This document shows, piece after piece, positions 2 through 29,042 of a DNA stretch of 64,000 bases. Position 1 is the stretch's first letter, and the number at the start of each line of letters is the position of its first letter. Position numbers and translations under genes: made by a program. This stretch comes from a virus: IMG/VR virus record IMGVR_UViG_3300045003_000080, positions 1-64,000 of that record. One strand, written 5' to 3'. The notes beneath the pieces were generated by a model. That model made no database searches and was not told the DNA's origin. It saw only the letters and a list, made by a program, of their open reading frames with translations.

Positions 2-136
2 CCAGTCGCAGAGCGCCACGATCTCGTGCGCCGAGTCCTCGCCGGCGATGAGGAGGCGGCCGAGAAGCTGCGCCTCGCGATGGCCGGTCAGTGGGAGTGG
101 CCTAAGAGCTGGCTCGGGATGAAGGAGAACGCATGA
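2..136 (+). CDS. 3' end of the N-terminal half of a split TROVE/Ro60 protein (partial at window edge)
   Basis: Frame +2 reads PVAERHDLVRRVLAGDEEAAEKLRLAMAGQWEWPKSWLGMKENA*, resembling the ERLAAAGMTWEALAGWL segment of actinobacterial TROVE proteins; its TGA overlaps the next ATG (ATGA at 133-136). Confidence 0.6.
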   Translation, partial: PVAERHDLVRRVLAGDEEAAEKLRLAMAGQWEWPKSWLGMKENA

Positions 137-1020
137 GCATCTCGGTGCAGGAGCGGCTGAGCGACGCGCAGGTGTGGGAGGCCCTCATCCCCCATATGGG
201 GTACGCTGCGCTTCTCAGGAACCTGAGGAACTTCGACCAGGCGGCGATCCCGGACAATGTCGCGGCGAAGGTCATAGACCGCCTGACCGATCCGGACGAG
301 GTCGCCCGCTCCCGACAGCTGCCTTTTCGCTTCCTCAGTGCGTACCGGGAGGCGCCGTCGCTGCGTTGGGGCCACGCGTTGGAGGTCGCGCTCGGCCACG
401 CGTGCCGCAACATCCCGAGTTTCCCAGGCCGCACAGCGATCTTGTGCGACACGTCCGCGTCGATGACGGACACCGTGTCGGCCAAGTCGAAGATCAAGCG
501 CGTCGACGTCGGCGCCCTGTTCGGCGTCGCGCTCGCGGCACGTGGCAGTGACGTCACCCTGTGCGGGTTCGCCGACGGGCTGTTCCACCATTCCCTGCAG
601 CCAGGCGGCAGCGTCCTGAAGCAGACCCAGGCGTTCACCGACCGTATCGGTGAAGTCGGGCACGGCACCCAGGCACTCGAAGCCGTCGCAGCCGTCCTCT
701 CGGCTGCACCGCAAACCGGGTCGAAGGCCCCGCTACGCCGAATCGTGCTGATCAGCGACATGCAGACCATGAACGCGCGACGCGGCACCTGGTACTGGAT
801 GCGCAACCCCGGCCAGCACAACGACACCGTCTCGGCGCTGGTCCCGAAGCACATCAACCTGTTCGGCTGGGACCTCGCCGGCTACGCGAACACCCAGATC
901 GACACGAGCAAGCCGGGTCGGTTCGAGTTGGGTGGGTTCTCGGACAGGTGCTTCACGATCATGTCGATGCTCGACCAGGGCATCGGATCCGGCTTCCCCT
1001 GGGAGAACACCAATGCCTGA
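133..1020 (+). CDS. TROVE/Ro60 (Rsr-like) C-terminal half with vWA domain
   Basis: WEALIPHMGYAALLRNLRNFDQA and SRQLPFRFLSAY TROVE motifs; vWA MIDAS DTSAS and IVLISD; RBS AAGGAG at 122-127. Confidence 0.85.
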   Translation: MSISVQERLSDAQVWEALIPHMGYAALLRNLRNFDQAAIPDNVAAKVIDRLTDPDEVARSRQLPFRFLSAYREAPSLRWGHALEVALGHACRNIPSFPGRTAILCDTSASMTDTVSAKSKIKRVDVGALFGVALAARGSDVTLCGFADGLFHHSLQPGGSVLKQTQAFTDRIGEVGHGTQALEAVAAVLSAAPQTGSKAPLRRIVLISDMQTMNARRGTWYWMRNPGQHNDTVSALVPKHINLFGWDLAGYANTQIDTSKPGRFELGGFSDRCFTIMSMLDQGIGSGFPWENTNA

Positions 1021-1686: not shown

Positions 1687-1862
1687 CACCGCGCCCAGCA
1701 GAAGAATGCTGGGCGCGGTTCTGGGAAGTCGTCGGAGCTGCCGTGTACCGACACCTCCGGGACACGGCAGCCACCGATACGACAACTACGCAGCAAGATC
1801 AGCCCAGTGAGGGACAATCTCGATCCGAGATGCCTGTTTGCCAGGCGTCCGAAGAACCGTGA
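1674..1862 (+). CDS. small protein convergent on the integrase (possible directionality factor)
   Basis: MDELTPRPAEECWARFWEVVG...; overlaps the integrase 3' end; function is a guess from position only. Confidence 0.4.
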   Translation: MDELTPRPAEECWARFWEVVGAAVYRHLRDTAATDTTTTQQDQPSEGQSRSEMPVCQASEEP

Positions 1863-3396
1863 TATGACGGATCACTTGGGCGAGCGCTAAGTGACGGTCA
1901 TGCTCGTTGAGACTCGGCCAGTAGTCGAGCATTGACTTGATCTTGTCGGCCGGAGGCGGTCCCCCACTGGCGACGGCTGCTTGAACTTTGCTTTTGCGGG
2001 CTTGCTTGAGGGAGAGGTCCGTCAAGAGTTCTTCGCGCGTGTTGCGGAACTCGTCCAGATCTATCGCCTCGGCGAGGTACGCCTGCTTGTTTCGGCCCAG
2101 CTTCCGCTCCAGAGCGGCAATGTCTTGATCGAGGGCGTCCAGTTCGGTACTGCGCTCATCCTTGCGCATGGCCTTCTCGTAAGCGGCGCGTGCGCTGCTG
2201 TCGGGCGAGGCGAAACTCTGCAGCCACGCGAGCACCTGCCCTTCTGCGTTCGGCAGCATGATTGTCGGTCCTCGTAGCGCGAACTCTTCCTCGCGCGCAG
2301 GGCATCGGAACTGGATCTTTCGTCGTCCGGCCCGGTAGAACGGGTGGGCGTGCATGGGACGGTGGCAGGGTTGCCCGTCATCTCGTACGTCTCCGCACCG
2401 GAGCAGCCCCGACAGAGAGTACTTCCATACCTGTTCGCTTGTCCGGTGGGCCGTCGGCTGCTTGCCGTCCAGGAGCTTGGATTTGTAGGCCGCCCACAGG
2501 TCGAGGGAGATGAGGGGTTCATGGAGGCCAGGTTCCCAAAGATCGTATTCGTCGGGGCGGCCAGTTGGGGGATGGGGCATCGTGGGGTTGCTGCGACCGT
2601 GCAACAGGCCGGCCGCGAAGCCGGTCTCCATGATCTGACGCCAGTCCCTAGCCCTGAGTACGTTCCCACGGAGTGAGCGGATGCCCCGCTCGTGCATGTC
2701 CTTCGCGATAGAGGCCAAGCTGTCGCCCTGTAGGGTCCAGCGTTCGTACGCTTCGGCGAGCGCTGGACCCCGCACGGGGTCGATTTCGAAGACACCCTTA
2801 CAGTTGTCGCAGTATTTGAATGCGTGCGGATTTTCCGAACTCCGCTCACATTTTGGGCATCGCTGATATCCGAATCGCGCCTGGCCAGTGTGCGGCAGGC
2901 CATTTCGTCGGCGTCTTTGATGGGTTTCGCGCCAACTCATGCCGATGACGTCTGATTCGAGTTCGTCCATGCTGAAATACATACGGAGGAAGAACGCGCC
3001 ATATGGCGTAGAAGTATCGATTGGCTGAGTGGCGGAAACGAGAAGTCCACCGACAGCGTTAAGGCGGTCGTTGTGGGCGCCGCATGCGGTGGCGTTTCTG
3101 CCGAAGCGCGAGAACTTCCATACGACGATTTTCTTTGCTTCGCCGTCGCCAACGCGTCCGATTGCTTCGGCGATACGTCGCTTGGCGAAGGAACGGCCAG
3201 ATTTGTCGGTCTCGATGATGTACTCAGTGATGCCGTGCCCAGTCCGCGCGGCCCACTCGTCGATGGCGTGCCTCTGCTGTTCGGGGGAGACCGTGCGTTC
3301 GTGCGCGAGACTGACGCGGATGTAGGCAATCGCGAGTTGGGACGGGTCGAGCGGTGTAGGTACTGCGTCGGCAGGCGGGGCGAGGTTGACCGGCAT
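1786..3396 (-). CDS. large serine recombinase (integrase)
   Basis: YIRVS catalytic Ser, KFSRFGRN, recombinase domain, LSGLLRCG...C...FRC Zn-ribbon, C-terminal coiled coil. Confidence 0.95.
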   Translation of the reverse strand: MPVNLAPPADAVPTPLDPSQLAIAYIRVSLAHERTVSPEQQRHAIDEWAARTGHGITEYIIETDKSGRSFAKRRIAEAIGRVGDGEAKKIVVWKFSRFGRNATACGAHNDRLNAVGGLLVSATQPIDTSTPYGAFFLRMYFSMDELESDVIGMSWRETHQRRRRNGLPHTGQARFGYQRCPKCERSSENPHAFKYCDNCKGVFEIDPVRGPALAEAYERWTLQGDSLASIAKDMHERGIRSLRGNVLRARDWRQIMETGFAAGLLHGRSNPTMPHPPTGRPDEYDLWEPGLHEPLISLDLWAAYKSKLLDGKQPTAHRTSEQVWKYSLSGLLRCGDVRDDGQPCHRPMHAHPFYRAGRRKIQFRCPAREEEFALRGPTIMLPNAEGQVLAWLQSFASPDSSARAAYEKAMRKDERSTELDALDQDIAALERKLGRNKQAYLAEAIDLDEFRNTREELLTDLSLKQARKSKVQAAVASGGPPPADKIKSMLDYWPSLNEHDRHLALAQVIRHITVLRTPGKQASRIEIVPHWADLAA

Positions 3397-4189: not shown

Positions 4190-4576
4190 GTGGAGTGGGT
4201 CAACGTCCGCCTGTTGATCTTCTCGATCATTGGTGGCCTGACAGCGACAGCCGACGGCGCAGTCGCCGCAACCTACAACCCGACGTCGCTCGACCCAACG
4301 GTCGTGTTCTGGCTCGTGACCGCGTCGATGCTCGTCGTCCTCGCGACCGTGTTCGTGGCGCTCGGCGCCCTTAAGCCGTACACCAGTCTCCACATGGCGT
4401 TGTGGTCGATCGCGTGGCTGCTCGGCGCCCTGAACGCCGGCGTGTTGGTCGCTGTGGTGTCGCAGCGTGCGCCGCACGGGGTCGCGTCGGCGCTGGGCGT
4501 GTTCGTCGGTCTCGTCGTGTTCGGCGTCGGCGAACTCGTGCTGTACCCAGCAGGGAAGGGCGGCCGACGTGGCTGA
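4190..4576 (+). CDS. membrane protein
   Basis: About four hydrophobic segments. Confidence 0.65.
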   Translation: MEWVNVRLLIFSIIGGLTATADGAVAATYNPTSLDPTVVFWLVTASMLVVLATVFVALGALKPYTSLHMALWSIAWLLGALNAGVLVAVVSQRAPHGVASALGVFVGLVVFGVGELVLYPAGKGGRRG

Positions 4577-6025: not shown

Positions 6026-6700
6026 ATACGGGCGCAATAGCGGGCCGAAAAGGTGCTATAGCGCTAGCGTTAGCGCTCGCTATTAGGCGGCTCGGTGAAA
6101 AGCTCCCACTTTCACGCGGGTGGGTGCGTGGAGAAGCTAATGGCTCCCCCGTTTGGGGGAGCCTTCCTTGCGTTTTAGGGGCCGGTGCGCCGAAGGGCGA
6201 GCTTCTGGGTTTTGCTGCGTCTTTGGTGTTTTGGGCGCCTGGTGCGACGGGATGCGACGTGCAGATGGTGGTGCGTATTTGAGTTGGCGGCGCGCCACAC
6301 CAGGCAAGGATCATGCTATCAAAGCGGTGTGGGTGGGCAGGGGTGTGGTGTGCCGAGTCGTGGGCCTCGCTTGTGGTAGCGCTTTTATAGCGCTTTCAGG
6401 TTTTTGAGCCGGTCGGCGCCGCGCCCCGGGCGGGGGCGGGGCGGCTGTTCTCCCCTGCTCTGCGCCGGCGTGGTGGCGCCTGGTGTTTGTCGCGGGTTTG
6501 TCGTGTTCTTGCGTTGATCTGTTGCAATTGTTTGCGCAGGTCACAGGGCCTCCTTTCGGCCGGCTGGCGGGTTGTTGTGGGCTCAGTGAAACGGGTTGGT
6601 GGGTGGCTTGTCAAGGGTCCGTGTTTTCATCACGCAGACTTGACGACGTTAGGGAAGCGTGTACGGTGGAGGCGACCAACCAGCCACCAACGAAAGGGGC
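6026..6700. repeat. non-coding block, degenerate copy of 17238-17900
   Basis: Shared ordered anchors ATACGGGCGCAAT, TAGCGCTAGCGYTARCGCTCGCTATTAG, CGGTGAAAAGCTC, TCATGCTA, AGCGCTTTCNGGTTTTT, then the promoter motif. Confidence 0.75.
6624..6667 (+). promoter_or_regulatory. conserved early promoter/operator, copy 2
   Basis: TTTTCATCACGCAGAC-TTGACG-16 nt-TACGGT. Confidence 0.75.
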
Positions 6701-8469: not shown

Positions 8470-8660
8470 CAGAAGACGACGCGCTAGAGCGCGCCGAAGA
8501 CGCCGACCCGACACAGGTCGAAATCGAATACACGGACTGGCGCCCTGATGGGCTGGCTTTTCTTCACGGAGCCCGGGGCGCATGGGCGACTGACCCCTAC
8601 ATCATTGCGCGCGCTGTTGAACTGTTGCGCGCCCAAAACGAGAAAGAAGGTAATGCGTGA
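8466..8660 (+). CDS. hypothetical protein
   Basis: GTGA-coupled at both ends. Confidence 0.55.
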   Translation: MTEDDALERAEDADPTQVEIEYTDWRPDGLAFLHGARGAWATDPYIIARAVELLRAQNEKEGNA

Positions 8661-9952
8661 CTGCTGTTGCGATGTCTGGTCCGCTCACCCGGGCCGACCG
8701 GTACGAGCGGCCCGCGACCGACCCGAACAAGGCTGACCGTGCGCTTGTCGGCGCGTGGATGGCGCTTGCGGCTGTTATCGGCGTGATGGCGACGCTGATC
8801 GCCCTGGGCGGCATGGTGCTGTCGTTTCGCGCCGTGTCGGTGGAGATGGTTCCGGCGTTCGGCGCCCGGTTCGCCTGGTTGGTGCCCGTCGTGGTTGACC
8901 TCGCCGTGTTCGTGTTCTCCGGCGTGGATCTCGTGTTGGCGCGCATGGACATGGGGCACCCGCTCGCCCGGTGGACGGTGTACGGGGCGACCGGGGGCAC
9001 GGTGTATCTGAACTGGAACGCTGGCGGGAACATCGCCGGCCGCGTCGCGCACGTCCTCATGCCCTCGATCTGGGTTGTGTTCGTGGAGCTGATGCGGCAT
9101 ATCGTGCGCCGGCAGGTGGGCCTCACGACCGGGAGTCTGCGCGAGCCGATCCCGGTCGCCCGGTGGCTGCTGTCTCCGGTGCCGACGTTCCTACTGTTCC
9201 GGCGCATGGTCCTGTGGCGGGTGAACGACTACACGCGCGCCCTGGAGATGGAGCGGCGCCGGCTCGGGGCGGTGTCGGTGCTGCGCGAACACGGGGGGCG
9301 CCGGCGTGTGTCGCTTCTGCTGCGCCGTCAGATCACCTGGGGCGAGGTGGACGCCGAGCAGGTGCGTGCGGCGCTGAACCCGGCGCCGAAGGTCGCCGAC
9401 GTGTCGACGATGGGCGGCGACTCGCAGTCGCGTGGGCTCTCGGAGATCCCGCAAGTGCACGAGACGCACATGCGCACGAGCGAGGCCCAGTACGCCGGCT
9501 TGGCGTGGGTGGCGGCAAACACGGTCATGCTCGACGGCGCGTCGCGTCTTCGCCTGGTCCCGGGCGTGCCGCTCGTGGGGGACGTTCCCGACGGGCGCAC
9601 CCTGCGATCGTTTTTTGATCGCGGCTTGGTGGCGAAGACGCCGAACCGGCCGGTTGGTCTGACGGTCAAGGGTGTGGGGGTGCTCGGGTATCACACGCAC
9701 AACACGGCTGACGTGCCGCATTACCGGGCGGCGTGTGAGTTGGGGCGTGATGTGGTGGTGGAGTTGGTGGCGCCGGATGGGGGGTTGCGTTCGGGGCCGG
9801 TGGTGGGTGTGAACCGGGTGGATGTGAGCGGCACCACGCTGCATATCGACGTGGTGGGCGGGGGTGTGGAGGTGCTGACGTTCCCGCATGCGCATTTGTT
9901 GCGTGTGGTGGGGGTTGTGGTGGATGGTTCGCCGGTTCGTTGGGTGAGCTAG
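8657..9952 (+). CDS. DUF2637-like membrane protein with C-terminal fused domain
   Basis: LSFRAV...AWLVPVVVD...TVYLNW...AHVLMP and IPVARWLLSPVPTFLLFRRMVLW pattern of DUF2637/Spd-type proteins. Confidence 0.75.
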   Translation: MTAVAMSGPLTRADRYERPATDPNKADRALVGAWMALAAVIGVMATLIALGGMVLSFRAVSVEMVPAFGARFAWLVPVVVDLAVFVFSGVDLVLARMDMGHPLARWTVYGATGGTVYLNWNAGGNIAGRVAHVLMPSIWVVFVELMRHIVRRQVGLTTGSLREPIPVARWLLSPVPTFLLFRRMVLWRVNDYTRALEMERRRLGAVSVLREHGGRRRVSLLLRRQITWGEVDAEQVRAALNPAPKVADVSTMGGDSQSRGLSEIPQVHETHMRTSEAQYAGLAWVAANTVMLDGASRLRLVPGVPLVGDVPDGRTLRSFFDRGLVAKTPNRPVGLTVKGVGVLGYHTHNTADVPHYRAACELGRDVVVELVAPDGGLRSGPVVGVNRVDVSGTTLHIDVVGGGVEVLTFPHAHLLRVVGVVVDGSPVRWVS

Positions 9953-13437: not shown

Positions 13438-13497
13438 TCGCCGCCCCCTGTGATGCATAAGACGCCTTATCCACGACAAGCCGAAAGGGGAACCAAC

Positions 13498-14067
13498 ATG
13501 AACGAGGCAGCGCAGGACAAACGCGCCGTTATCTACGCGCGTGCGGCCAGCACGCTAGCCCTCAGTGAGCAGATGGCTGCGTGTCGGTTGTTCATCCTGG
13601 AGCAGGGTTGGACACCCGTCGGGTTCTGGAGTGACGCGGCGATGCCGAAAGACACTCTCCCGGACGGCCTCACGCAGGCGTGCAACTGGGTCCGCGACAA
13701 CGGCGTCCCGCATTTCGTCGTCCCCCACCTCGATCGGCTCGGACGCAAACCGGACCAGTACCGGCGTTCCCGCGACGCGATCGAGGCCACCGGCGCGAAG
13801 ATCCATTACGCGAGACTCACCGTGACCCTGTCGGAGGAAATGCCCGGCGACGTGTTCGCCGTGCGCGTCCGTGACGAGATCATCGCGACCCTGGTCCCCA
13901 GCGACGAAGGCGTCATGGACTGGTACCCGAAGGGCTCCGACACCGCGCAGGCCGTCACCTTCGGTGAACTACAAGACCGGCTCTACGAGTTTGGGGGCGA
14001 CGTGTTCTACATGGACCTCGCCGGCAACCCGAAGCCGGTCGTGCCCCGCCCCAAGGCCGACGCGTGA
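13498..14067 (+). CDS. serine resolvase-like catalytic domain protein (possibly inactive)
   Basis: RAVIYARAAS...EQMAACR...FWSD...HLDRLGR; the canonical YARVS is altered. Confidence 0.75.
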   Translation: MNEAAQDKRAVIYARAASTLALSEQMAACRLFILEQGWTPVGFWSDAAMPKDTLPDGLTQACNWVRDNGVPHFVVPHLDRLGRKPDQYRRSRDAIEATGAKIHYARLTVTLSEEMPGDVFAVRVRDEIIATLVPSDEGVMDWYPKGSDTAQAVTFGELQDRLYEFGGDVFYMDLAGNPKPVVPRPKADA

Positions 14068-15024: not shown

Positions 15025-16172
15025 CCAACAAGAGCGGCCCGATCGAGGGCGACTGGCACACGTCGCACGAAAGGCTCGCCGCATCGATCGAGGGCGCCTA
15101 CCGGGAGCGGCGCGCAGCCGAAACCCGACAAGAAGGGGGAACCATGTACCCGATGCGCCGCTTCCGCATCGAACTCGCGACCGAAGACAGGGACGTCACC
15201 GCGACGTCTTACCAGCTCGCGAACGGGATGTATCACTTCTACGGGCCGCCCCTCCCCGGCCTCGTCACAAGCACGCCCCGCCACAGTGTCCGGGCCGAAA
15301 ACGTGCTCGCCGTGTACGAGATCGACGACGCGCCGGCCACGCCGACACTCATCATGTCGGAGACCGACCTGCGCGCGCTGCCCATGGGGCTGATCGTGTC
15401 CGACGCGCGCGGACTGCGCGCCGAAACGTACATGACCCCGTACGGCGCCGACGCCCAGTTCTACATCAACGGCGCCCCGATCGACGCCCTGTATCCGCTC
15501 ACCGTGAACGCCGTCGACAACGCCGTCCGGCTGTGGTCGATGCCGGATGACGTCCGGTTCACAGACGCGGCCGGCCGCACGTGGGTCACGTGCTACGTGA
15601 ACGGCGTCTCGGCTGCCGTGATGCTGCCGGGCGGCAAGGATCAGGGGGTGTGGGTGGTCACGGAAGACAGCAACATGAACCTTCCGTTCCCGTTCACGTT
15701 CGCCGGCTACCCGATCACCGACGACGACACGGTGACCACCCGCCACATGGTGGCCCACTCGTTCGACACACTGTGGGGGCTCCCCGTCGGGCTGAGCCTG
15801 ACCGACCAGGGCGGCCACACCTGGCGCACCGTCGAGCACATGGGCGCCACCGGGATTCAGTACGTGGAGGACGGGCAGGTCGGCGAAGTCGTGTACGCGG
15901 GCAACTACCATGCGGCGTTGCCGGTGGACACGTCGGAGCTGTTCCCGTTCACGGTGGACACGTTCGACGGGCCCGGTGATCTGCTCCGGCTCGGCGCGGA
16001 CGTGAACCTGCGCGACGGCGACGGCGCCATGTGGAAGACGTACACGGGAGAGAAGGCGGGCGTGGGGCTGATGCCGGTTGCGCCTGGTTCGGATGAGTGG
16101 CACTGGCTGAACCCGGCTGATCCGGCGGTTCTGGATGGTGGGTTGGTGTACCCGTTCACCTACGTACCGTAG
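15021..16172 (+). CDS. protein with four LxxLPxGxxxxDxxGxxW-type repeats
   Basis: Repeats visible in translation; alternative start at 15145. Confidence 0.75.
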   Translation: MTNKSGPIEGDWHTSHERLAASIEGAYRERRAAETRQEGGTMYPMRRFRIELATEDRDVTATSYQLANGMYHFYGPPLPGLVTSTPRHSVRAENVLAVYEIDDAPATPTLIMSETDLRALPMGLIVSDARGLRAETYMTPYGADAQFYINGAPIDALYPLTVNAVDNAVRLWSMPDDVRFTDAAGRTWVTCYVNGVSAAVMLPGGKDQGVWVVTEDSNMNLPFPFTFAGYPITDDDTVTTRHMVAHSFDTLWGLPVGLSLTDQGGHTWRTVEHMGATGIQYVEDGQVGEVVYAGNYHAALPVDTSELFPFTVDTFDGPGDLLRLGADVNLRDGDGAMWKTYTGEKAGVGLMPVAPGSDEWHWLNPADPAVLDGGLVYPFTYVP

Positions 16173-16209
16173 TACTGTACGACTGTCGCGCGGCTTGCGG
16201 CACAGAACG

Positions 16210-16245
16210 AAGCACCCCCCGGCATACGCGTCGGGGGGTGCTTTC
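16210..16245 (+). terminator. intrinsic terminator
   Basis: AAGCACCCCCC/GGGGGGTGCTT stem followed by TC. Confidence 0.7.
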
Positions 16246-16250
16246 GTGTG

Positions 16251-17190
16251 CGGCCCGGGGCGTTGGCGCTATGGGGTGCGAGGCCAGGTGGGGCTCCGGG
16301 CCAGCGTAGGGGGGCCCTGTGCGTTGCACTCATGGGAGGCGAAAGACATTTGGCACGGGGCCCGGCTTTTGGGGTTCCGGGCTGGCGTGATATGGGCGTC
16401 GCCGTTTCGTCGAGCCCGGAACCAGTCGGATAATAGCAGAAAGCCCCGTGCGCGGGTCCTTCGGGGAGCGGGACGATAGGGGGCACAGGGCTGACTCTGG
16501 TAGCCCCGGGCGCCTCTACTATGGGCGGCAGTCGAAATCTGACCCGGGGACTAGTCGGATGATAGCAGGAGGCCCCGAGCGGCACTACTCCGGGTGAACG
16601 TCCCTGGAATGGCTCGGGGCCCGCCTGCGCACCCCGTGCGGTTCCCATGAGGGCGGCGACGATGCATCGGCGCGGGGCAGTCAGGGTGTCCCGGGCGATC
16701 TGGCATTGGGCGGCGAAACATACCCGACCCGGGACGAGCATACAATAGCAGACGGCCCCGTGTGCGACCTCAACAGGGTGACGTGAGGGGTTCGACACGG
16801 GGCCGGCGTGCCTCAGGCGTTCAACACAGGGGCGCCGGAAGTGATTCGACCTGGGGCAAGTCTCGCGGCCCCGGGCGCATCCGCTATGGGTAGCGATATG
16901 TTCGAGGCCCGGGACCGATCCGATAATAACAGCCCTGTGCGGGACTCAATCGGGTGAACGGGCACTCATTGGCACAGGGCCAGCTCTGGGGTCCCGGGCG
17001 AAGAACTGACGGGTAGGCGTCTGAGACTAGGCCCGGGACTGTCAGATAATAGCAGAGGGCTCGGCGCGCAATCTGACAGGGCGACGGATGCTCTACGACG
17101 CCGAGCCCAGCTCTCGGGGTCCCGGGCGAAAGAACTACGGTGAGCGCTGGAACAGGGGACCAGGACCAGCGCATACGATACCATACGGCG
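16251..17190. repeat. array of 5 clear plus 2 degenerate structured repeat units (~125-185 nt period)
   Basis: Each unit has a CCCGG-centred inverted repeat, a GATAATAGCAG-like linker and a second GC-rich hairpin. Confidence 0.75.
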
Positions 17191-17244
17191 CCAATCGCAG
17201 GGGGATACGGGCCCCATACGGCGCCAATCGCAGGGGGATACGGG
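17181..17244. repeat. 31-bp direct repeat x2
   Basis: CCATACGGCGCCAATCGCAGGGGGATACGGG at 17181 and 17214. Confidence 0.9.
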
Positions 17245-17900
17245 CGCAATTACAAAAACGAAACCACCCCTAGCGCTAGCGCTAACGCTCGCTATTAGAC
17301 GACTCGGTGAATCGGTGAAAAGACACCACCACGCCCGGTGAAAAGCTCGCGCCCCCACGCCGTCACCCGAACGGGGGAAGCCCCGGGCCGGCGCGCGAAG
17401 GATGGTCGAAAAACGCAGCGACGTCAGCACACCGGCCCTTGCGGGCACCAGCCTGACGGGGAGCACCGCCCACGCGGAGCCACTATGGGCACCACTGAAA
17501 CGCTGGCGTGGACGGTGGCGGCTCCCCCCAGACACACCTACGCTATCACATCATGCTAACGACCAGGGCAGAGCTTGAAGCCGCTAGCGCTCAGCGCTAT
17601 ATCAGCGCTTTCCGGTTTTTCAAACACGGCGCCTCCCGGGCGCGCGCCGGCCACCCCGCCCGCGTCGGCCGGCGCCGGCAGCCCCCGCCTCGCACACGCG
17701 CGAGCGCGCGAGGGTATGTCAACGCCGGCGTATCAAGCTGCGAGTGTCAACGGCTTGACACGGGGCGCTTGGGTCCAACTTCACACGTTGCCAGACGCGG
17801 GGCACCCATGGCAAGGGGCACTTTTTCATCACGCAGACTTGACAATGTTAGGGAACGTGAGACGATCGAGGCTCCGCACAACCCACCGACTAAGGGGCGA
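17238..17900. repeat. non-coding block, degenerate copy of 6026-6700
   Basis: Same ordered anchors as 6026-6700. Confidence 0.75.
17823..17866 (+). promoter_or_regulatory. conserved early promoter/operator, copy 5
   Basis: TTTTCATCACGCAGAC-TTGACA-16 nt-GACGAT. Confidence 0.7.
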
Positions 17901-17902
17901 CC

Positions 17903-26337: not shown

Positions 26338-26615
26338 CGACCGTCCCTTCCATACTTCCAGCGTTCAGCCAGTAGTCGATCCGAGGGGGCGCTTGCCGGT
26401 CTCGTCCCGGTTCCCATACCGTGAACGCAGGCGTCCCCCTATTGCATAACGGTGCCCTAATGACGACCGGGGGACGCCACACCCCCAGTTTCGTGTTACC
26501 ATCGGTGTGCGGCCATGGTGCCGCTTCCGAGTCTGGTTGGCTTGGAACTCGCGGCCCTCGAATCCCTCACCGGTCGGGGGCCGCGACCCTTTCCCCTCCC
26601 GTTCGAGGAGCCCCC

Positions 26616-28822: not shown

Positions 28823-29042
28823 ACGCACTGCACGAGGTGCTGGGCAAGTAGCGCCCAAGTCGGCCCTTCCCCCCGGACCGGGAAGGGCCGACACCACAAC
28901 CAGTGCTCTCCCCAGCCTTCTCACGACACCCATACTGTCTCCGGGAGAGCACCCCAAACCGGGCGCGGCTCTCCGGACTCTTTTCGACACCCCGTGATGC
29001 TGCGAGAGCCGCACCCACCCCCATCAGTAGTATCATCCGCTC

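Follow-up and report, generated by a model that had tools for sequence, protein, structure and literature searches.

The TIGR-Tas systems were described in 2025, and the 2026 catalogue of Xu et al., by its own account, surveys them only around tas genes (10.64898/2026.09.09.750476). As these are described, the stem-loop form of a TIGR array consists of tandem hairpins whose stems, of at least 5 bp, vary in sequence yet remain palindromic, and each unit carries two spacers of 8-12 and typically ~9 nt, with a box C (CCA, CGA, CTA or CAA) ahead of every spacer, a box D (TG or CG) behind it and an inter-spacer loop that is mostly 9 nt long (PMC12045711; 10.64898/2026.09.09.750476). A tas gene, coding for a Nop-domain protein, accompanies such arrays and usually adjoins them. 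According to Faure et al. one spacer pairs to each DNA strand (PMC12045711). The closest described systems combine such an array with a nuclease-less TasA, as in PlTasA from a Peromyscus gut contig (Faure et al. 2025, PMC12045711) and BlTasA of Bifidobacterium longum (Xu et al. 2026 preprint, 10.64898/2026.09.09.750476). TasA proteins are reported to bind DNA and to repress reversibly and guide-dependently without cleavage (10.64898/2026.09.09.750476). Here we describe a hairpin array, array 1, at positions 16250-17170 of the virus record IMGVR_UViG_3300045003_000080 (IMG/VR; hereafter G000), which derives from a soil metagenome and is 119,829 bp long; the window analysed is its first 64 kb, and window and genome coordinates coincide. 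Array 1 is very probably a stem-loop TIGR guide array whose minus-strand RNAs would be loaded in trans on the TasA of this phage.

Hairpin anatomy, box grammar and strand

Array 1 consists of 15 copies of one kind of hairpin, and a sixteenth copy (H16) is located at 17462-17519. The units are about 46-53 nt each with a start-to-start spacing of 53-69 nt, and the hairpins have a GC-rich 9-11-bp stem and a ~30-nt loop. The initial annotation of this stretch had recognized, behind a terminator, five units of two hairpins each plus two degenerate ones. The stem pairs, the linker GATAATAGCAG and the loop motifs that it named are all where it placed them, and its terminator corresponds to a 12-bp perfect terminator-like hairpin at 16210-16243, but it missed the copies near 16312, 16632 and 16809 and that at 17462-17519. 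There are in fact 15 equivalent hairpins and H16, and the 'two-hairpin unit' was a partial view, because a long linker (11-16 nt) follows only every second or third hairpin of the array.

An alignment of the 15 units (MAFFT; A1) is nearly gap-free, and the covariation of the stems in array 1, which had been suspected from their compensatory base changes, is real. Pairing is found in 83.6% of stem cells as against 71.2 +/- 1.9 in shuffles, eight of the 11 stem pairs have changes on both sides, and none of 500 shuffles attains any of five measures of covariation; when the partner is displaced by 1-3 columns as a control, pairing is only 20-52%. A covariance model of these 15 units, built on the plus strand (R1), recovers all of them with E-values of 7.9e-9 to 1.3e-5.

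The stretch 16250-17170 is noncoding, because the four open reading frames (ORFs) that cross it have flat GC content at the three codon positions (0.62-0.69), none of the four has a Pfam match, and the unit spacing is no multiple of 3. Four genuine G000 genes, taken for comparison, have GC2 near 0.48 and GC3 of 0.79-0.89. The gap without genes around the array extends from 16173 to 17902, and the genes on both sides are on the plus strand.

In minus-strand reading each unit has the layout stem, box C (CCN or YCN), 9-nt spacer, CG, 3-5 nt, CCN, 9-nt spacer, CG, stem, and a parser of this grammar accepts 13 of the 15 units in this sense but not one in the plus sense. Among the 26 parsed intervals box D reads CG 25 times and TG once, the spacer is 9 nt long in 23, 8 nt in one and 10 nt in two, and box C is CCA in 8, CCG in 6, CCT in 5, CCC in 3, TCG in 3 and TCA in 1; the block from box D to box C' is 9 nt in nine and 10 nt in four of the 13 parsed units. 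The pattern CCN-N9-CG occurs 32 times on the minus strand of array 1 (14.6 +/- 3.2 in shuffles), and the strict pattern CNA-N9-YG is not enriched in the array (10 vs 8.6 +/- 2.9). Mutual identity of the spacers amounts to 2.33 of 9 positions for A-A comparisons, 2.14 for B-B and 2.28 for cross comparisons, and to 2.35 +/- 0.14 in shuffles. The array is fixed punctuation around free text, which is how guide arrays look.

This grammar also accounts for the two loop motifs of the initial annotation, which are present, although not as separate plus-strand motifs: (TA)TGGG is the complement of box C', GGGYGA(A)CG is the complement of the box D-loop block, and together they complement a single minus-strand block, CG, 3-5 nt, CCN. 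Its plus-strand reading probably has to be reversed; by homology and grammar the minus strand is most likely the functional one, and it is assigned as the RNA sense because of the homology to tasA-adjacent units that is described below. The context agrees with this strand: for a minus-sense transcript the 16243-16210 hairpin closes the array, and a plus-sense one would meet a terminator-like hairpin 7 nt ahead of its first unit.

Homologous units beside tasA genes

By six-frame profile search G000 has a single tas gene, tasA, at 109191-109970, or at 109170-110090 (+) when taken from a likely ATG at 109170, located directly after a second array that we refer to as the tasA-adjacent array. The corresponding 311-aa ORF (L083:2656-3591) has no Pfam match, and phmmer relates it to 9MTY_A (E 1e-9; residues 79-192 and 241-265) and to TasH chains (E 0.04), 9MTY being the TaTasR structure according to Xu et al. 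(10.64898/2026.09.09.750476). A family profile of 28 homologues (A3) matches TaTasR (PDB 9MTY) at 5.7e-29 and TasH at 1.3e-11. The region N-terminal to the Nop match is shorter than 80 residues and leaves no room for a RuvC or HNH domain, by which the predicted protein is TasA-like and nuclease-less. There are 848 homologues of this TasA at E<=1e-5, all of them unnamed or 'hypothetical' and with all named taxa in the Actinomycetota; they include proteins of an Actinomadura chromosome and of a Solirubrobacterales metagenome-assembled genome (MAG).

Eight other viral contigs carry TasA homologues with 38-49% identity, and R1, which was built only from array 1, finds these foreign tasA loci. Over the eight loci (61.5 kb, filters off) it has 42 matches at E<=1, every one of them antisense to tasA. 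The foreign units are packed just upstream of tasA, with some inside the gene or after it, and in tasA sense they read stem-CCA-N9-CG-ACAC-CCA-N9-CG-stem; in their alignment (A2) 93.6% of stem cells are paired and 11 of 11 pairs covary. The same antisense-beside-tasA pattern recurs at L095, the locus of the Solirubrobacterales MAG. At L094, on the Actinomadura chromosome, the match coordinates are exactly those of L086; this locus looks like the same provirus and is not counted separately. Units inside the tasA coding sequence are seen in the relatives L086, L088, L090, L091 and L093, at about 4346-4555 of each locus, and Xu et al. describe units within the tas coding sequence for BlTasA (10.64898/2026.09.09.750476); no comparable unit was seen inside the tasA of G000 itself.

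A second covariance model (R2), made from the 42 foreign units alone, matches six units of array 1 in G000, all on the minus strand, with a best score of 33.1 bits (E 1.5e-4), and, on the plus strand, three of the tasA-adjacent units; its further sites are at 17464-17517 (-), 28901-28954, 26385-26438, at 93.4 kb, and at three positions between 99.8 and 100.8 kb. R1 gives weaker matches in G000 outside array 1, at 93432-93487 and, in the other orientation, at 108466-109144. Because R1 finds the foreign units and R2 in turn finds those of array 1, array 1 is, judged from these reciprocal matches in sequence and structure, homologous to the TIGR arrays that adjoin tas genes. When all of G000 is scanned with the strict grammar, 27 units are found on the true strands as against 3 in a reversed-sequence control, in which hairpins are kept and boxes are flipped. 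There is no match of R1 in the five nearest TerL relatives, all of which lack TasA, and none of R2 in G001, the only one of these five scanned with it; the genes flanking array 1 are not shared with the five.

R1, the grammar and R2 together delimit array 1 as 15 tandem stem-loop tigRNA-like units on the minus strand, running from H15 to H1 in minus order. Four of the six that R2 matches are H2 (16312..16363, E 0.0031), in which both intervals are canonical CCA-N9-CG, H5 (16500..16552, E 0.006), whose first box D is TG, H8 (16687..16736, E 0.0043) and H11 (16866..16917), which is the top match of the foreign-trained model mentioned above. The grammar scan places H7 (16632..16677), H10 (16809..16858), H12 (16932..16980) and H13 (16990..17040), and together with the inverted-repeat search it places H6 (16571..16621) and H14 (17057..17108), and with R1 it places H15 (17117..17168), which has a degenerate stem. 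Inverted-repeat search and minus-strand reading give H3 (16373..16423), whose last box D is AG, and H9 (16753..16805); H4 (16443..16491) comes from minus-strand reading, and H1 (16252..16302) from the hairpin listing and minus-strand reading. The solitary H16 (17462..17519, minus strand), which in minus sense lies upstream of the array, is canonical (CCA-N9-TG ... CCA-N9-CG; R2 E 9.6e-4).

Where the initial annotation had made its reading depend on significant covariation, on the absence of a coding frame that would explain the repeats and on the absence of a known family, covariation is significant and no such frame was found, and the units do match a known family, the stem-loop TIGR arrays. 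In an Rfam search of the window only tRNAs pass, and with a cut-off of E<=10 the best E-values in 16100-17450 are 1.3 and 4.2, far below gathering; these searches are empty because Rfam holds no TIGR model. A distant blastn search of the array region against 50,697 phage records gave no match. A covarying-hairpin flag can be resolved in this way to a recently described family that is absent from Rfam. The proposal of a multi-copy structured noncoding RNA is supported by architecture and homology, whereas a protein sponge, an antitoxin, an anti-defence RNA and single-stranded DNA (ssDNA) hairpin sites are unsupported, the units showing TIGR guide grammar and homology to tasA-adjacent arrays.

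Remote layout and readings of the array

Array 1 is of a kind known since 2025, in a layout that is remote, inverted and partly dispersed. It shares with the PlTasA and BlTasA systems, so far as these are described, the tandem hairpins, the variable palindromic stems, the two ~9-nt spacers between box C and box D (CG), the ~9-nt loop block, the presence of a nuclease-less Tas in the genome and the phage or actinobacterial setting (PMC12045711; 10.64898/2026.09.09.750476). Unlike these systems, it lies ~26 kb from the only tas gene of the genome, its neighbours are on the other strand, and its orientation is the reverse of that of the tasA-adjacent array, which stands directly upstream of tasA; it is also the largest array of G000, the third base of its box C is free, a conserved linker recurs every 2-3 units and there is no clear CUU at the stem bases. 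Array expression and TasA binding have been demonstrated for the described systems (PMC12045711; 10.64898/2026.09.09.750476), whereas array 1 is known from its sequence. In a limited literature look-up we did not find a remote or orphan TIGR layout in print, although supplementary tables or the TIGRSafari resource may list one; 'distal', as the term stands in the text of Xu et al., refers to stems only (10.64898/2026.09.09.750476).

Other systems are more distant. The dual-repeat TIGR arrays (TaTasR, SpTasH) have the same dual-spacer logic, with boxes C and D around 9-nt spacers and a Nop-domain effector, but array 1 is without their conserved edge and loop repeats and their 36-nt period, stems replace the edge repeats, and the effector is without RuvC or HNH. 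CRISPR arrays have near-identical repeats of 23-50 nt with unique spacers of similar size between them, whereas no such family was found in array 1, its direct-repeat families are only 60-81% alike and overlap the stems, and TRF reports only a 33-bp pair; the statement that the locus is not CRISPR-like thus holds for its anatomy, without near-identical repeats, but not for its probable function as a guide-RNA array. Orphan or remote CRISPR arrays and phage mini-arrays are guide arrays situated away from an effector gene and presumably used in trans. Array 1 resembles them in being a remote guide array; its anatomy is unrelated, with two short guides per unit, and the effector family is different. 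Sponges of the CsrB/RsmZ type bind proteins through many tandem hairpins with a short conserved loop motif. Array 1 differs in having box complements at a fixed 9-nt spacing around random sequence, and has no GGA loops and no Rfam match. Archaeal box C/D small RNAs (sRNAs), an analogy drawn by Faure et al. (PMC12045711), likewise have a terminal stem, two guide segments and paired boxes bound by a Nop-domain protein, but no RUGAUGA/CUGA K-turn boxes were seen in array 1, it has no Rfam family, and the TIGR targets are DNA.

On the mechanism suggested by these likenesses, array 1 would be transcribed from the minus strand and its transcript cut, or separately initiated, into hairpin RNAs of roughly 50-60 nt, in each of which the covarying 9-11-bp stem would enclose two 9-nt guide segments flanked by box C (CCN or YCN) on the 5' side and box D (CG) on the 3' side. 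A dimer of the single nuclease-less TasA would take up these hairpin RNAs in trans and be directed by them to 18-20-bp DNA sites, one guide segment pairing per strand, and by analogy with the published TasA proteins the binding would repress transcription without cutting. The most likely role, by the same analogy, would be RNA-guided DNA binding and repression of genes of the host or of rival mobile elements. It is possible, although we regard it as rather doubtful, that the phage runs its single TasA mostly on trans-encoded guides, from the remote array of 15-16 units and from groups at ~26.4, 28.9, 93.4 and 99.8-101.9 kb, each an independent transcription unit, with the linkers as internal promoters (-10-like TATTAT) from which primary transcripts begin at the stem base, so that 5' processing is unnecessary.

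The long linkers, located by repeat search and minus-strand reading, number five on the minus strand: one at 17041..17056 (plus GATAATAGCAG, minus CTGCTATTATC) and four near 16424-16442, 16553-16570, 16737-16752 and 16918-16931. Every one of them holds a -10-like hexamer, and both strands carry one, TATTAT on the minus strand and GATAAT on the plus strand, 6-7 nt from the next stem; the linkers could act as internal promoters or as processing sites. Four of the five genome-wide matches of CTGCTATNNT in G000 are inside array 1 itself, and we rejected the linker as a general phage promoter on this count. An IUPAC pattern of the linker has nine single matches in viral contigs, and R1 matches at none of the nine, so that these are chance matches; the long linker is peculiar to array 1. 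The linker periodicity and the recurring stem classes suggest that the array may have grown by block duplication; the spacers, however, have no residual similarity.

Several observations count against a minus-strand guide array that serves the distant TasA. The ~26 kb between the two is counted across the record ends (110090 to 16250), and in four TasA-bearing relatives (two ~110-kb proviruses and two records of 82 and 53 kb) 36 of the 37 R2 units at E<=0.01 lie within about 1 kb of tasA, the 37th being marginal (E 0.0067); R2 was trained on the adjacent units of the relatives, which match by construction, and the informative point is that there are no remote units there. The scores of array 1 under R2 (<=33 bits) are likewise to be read against 36-55 for most of the relatives' units, which are the training set. 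The array is on the strand opposite to both flanking genes, and a sigma-70 scan finds no minus-strand promoter for it. In box C the second base is C, the first is C or T and the third is free, and the canonical CCA accounts for only 8 of 26 intervals. A conserved CUU at the stem base is the processing motif reported by Xu et al. (10.64898/2026.09.09.750476), and it is not evident in array 1: in a by-eye count from the linkers, which varies with the chosen stem start, it is exact only in H10, while CU stands before several of the other stems; the relatives have many units starting with CTT or CTC. In the proposed RNA sense of array 1 the stems have five A.C mismatches and four G.U pairs plus three U.G junction pairs, and in the relatives the wobble count (G.U 8, A.C 5) does not discriminate the strands either. 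A run search finds the stretch in two soil-metagenome DNA runs, from which the record may itself derive, and in no RNA run.

The search for targets belongs with these points. A site was taken to be spacer B with the reverse complement of spacer A behind it, or the two in the other order, with a gap of 0-2. For 34 units over eight phage records (~800 kb; the phage itself and seven related or TasA-bearing phage records) there are no matches at <=1 mismatch, and at <=2 mismatches there are 15 as against 7-12 in the null of re-paired spacers; in the phage's own genome 20 units have 9 matches at <=3 mismatches, as against 5-10 for re-paired spacers. No target was thus found in these records. The guides have 18 informative letters, so that searches at the gigabase scale of host genomes would be noise, a difficulty that Xu et al. 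state as well (10.64898/2026.09.09.750476). The best self-match of a guide pair, at 6387-6405 and belonging to the tasA-adjacent unit at 108745, is 16/18 with a 1-nt gap; about 0.6 such matches are expected by chance, and it is not significant.

The main remaining doubt is whether array 1 is still in use. A decaying array, left over from a former tas locus or from a duplication and not loaded on TasA any more, would fit the degenerate third position of box C, the poor stem of H15, the lower scores with the foreign-trained model, the remote and inverted site without an adjoining tas gene and the fact that the units of relatives stay beside tasA. We nevertheless think it improbable, since compensatory changes maintain the stems (eight of 11 pairs changed on both sides) and the 9-nt spacers and CG box D persist in 23 and 25 of the 26 intervals, where neutral erosion would have spoiled the stems and both of these; array 1 is, besides, the biggest array of the genome. 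The tasA-adjacent array is equally relaxed in box C (CCG 6 and CCA 2 among five parsed units), which makes the relaxation look like a trait of this TasA.

Two further explanations dispense with guides, and both seem to us less probable than decay. A structured RNA of the plus strand could, through its G-rich loops, act as sponge or decoy and capture an RNA-binding protein or a small RNA of host or phage, as that strand is G-rich with GGG invariant in every loop, the flanking genes are both on it, its linker has the -10-like GATAAT ~7 nt before the next stem and its stems have a few G.U pairs. It is, however, very unlikely: the terminator-like hairpin would lie 7 nt ahead of its first unit, the conserved letters are the exact complement of box C and box D, the grammar parses no unit in this sense, all 42 homologous units elsewhere are antisense to it and co-directional with tasA, and the random-like sequence between the conserved letters fits guides and not repeated binding sites. 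Slightly less likely still is a function of the hairpins as DNA, either as cruciforms or as single-strand initiation or origin-associated sites, with inverted arrays on both sides of a replication origin, so that the lagging-strand template would present the same hairpins in each. Across the record ends array 1 and the tasA-adjacent array are indeed mutually inverted, a 33-bp tandem repeat and an AT-richer stretch adjoin array 1, and covariation by itself cannot separate RNA from ssDNA; yet an origin role leaves unexplained that homologous units are always beside or inside tasA in one orientation, the extra units are scattered over both strands, and the published stem-loop arrays of this architecture are reported as expressed and bound to TasA as RNA (PMC12045711; 10.64898/2026.09.09.750476).

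If array 1 is a guide array acting in trans, the bulk of the TasA guide repertoire of G000 may sit tens of kb from the effector, on the other strand and with its own terminators, with extra units scattered elsewhere. If this is general, Tas-centred searches miss guides and catalogues under-count them, and remote arrays, were they common, might account for the tas loci that Xu et al. mention as 'arrayless' (10.64898/2026.09.09.750476). The same authors ask whether tigRNAs are co-transcribed with tas or have promoters of their own (10.64898/2026.09.09.750476), and for remote arrays, if general, only the latter would be allowed. A complete genome with roughly 35 guide pairs would be a good substrate for finding natural targets once a host is known.

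Surroundings of the array and additional units

Between H16 and H15 there is a perfect 33-bp tandem repeat in two copies (17181..17246). Its copies contain, in minus sense, the box-like intervals YCC-N9-TG and CCG-N9-CG and may be a degenerate or nascent unit, and the AT-richer stretch beyond the repeat might contain the promoter of array 1. Two terminator-like hairpins lie downstream of H16 in minus sense, one with a T-run directly past it (17419..17434, minus strand) and a second at 17326-17341 (-). The GC-rich hairpin at 16210..16243, flagged as terminator-like on the plus strand only, marks the 3' side of the array in minus sense; it is the terminator of the upstream plus-strand gene, and it could act bidirectionally. 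Clusters of the palindrome AGCGCT, possibly operator sites, are present in the same noncoding gap at 17270-17289 and 17586-17612; they have an 8/9 match to one spacer of the tasA-adjacent array, which we take as chance.

PHROGs and Pfam searches with ten proteins, the nine neighbours within ~6 kb and a 383-aa gene product, gave nothing that accounts for the array, and neither did Pfam for genes elsewhere in the window. The 383-aa gene adjoins array 1 and has no similarity to Tas, and no relative of its product was found in viral contigs or metagenome contigs.

The tasA-adjacent array (108463-109144, plus strand) has ~11 units with more irregular spacer lengths, and an ACCTCC-containing linker that resembles an anti-Shine-Dalgarno sequence recurs before several of its stems. 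Among the units outside the arrays, that at 28903-28952 (+) is fully canonical (CCA-N9-CG-ACAC-CCA-N9-CG, 9-bp stem, R2 E 4e-4), and other tigRNA-like units are at 28961-29016 (+) and 26383-26440 (+). Beyond the window there is a two-unit mini-array at 93382-93484 (-), and three or four solitary units that follow this grammar lie within 99846-101878 (+).

G000 has a GC content of ~65%, and an exact 127-bp repeat is common to both of its ends, giving a unique length of 119,702 bp and being consistent with a circular assembly. Its gene content includes a serine integrase, TerL, a portal, ten tRNAs and a TROVE/vWA gene. The last of these, encoding TROVE plus vWA (Ro60-like), is near the start of the record (133-1020, plus strand); the large serine integrase is at 1786-3396, an additional short ORF with a resolvase domain at 13450-14067 (+), and a DUF2637 gene at 8657-9952 (+).

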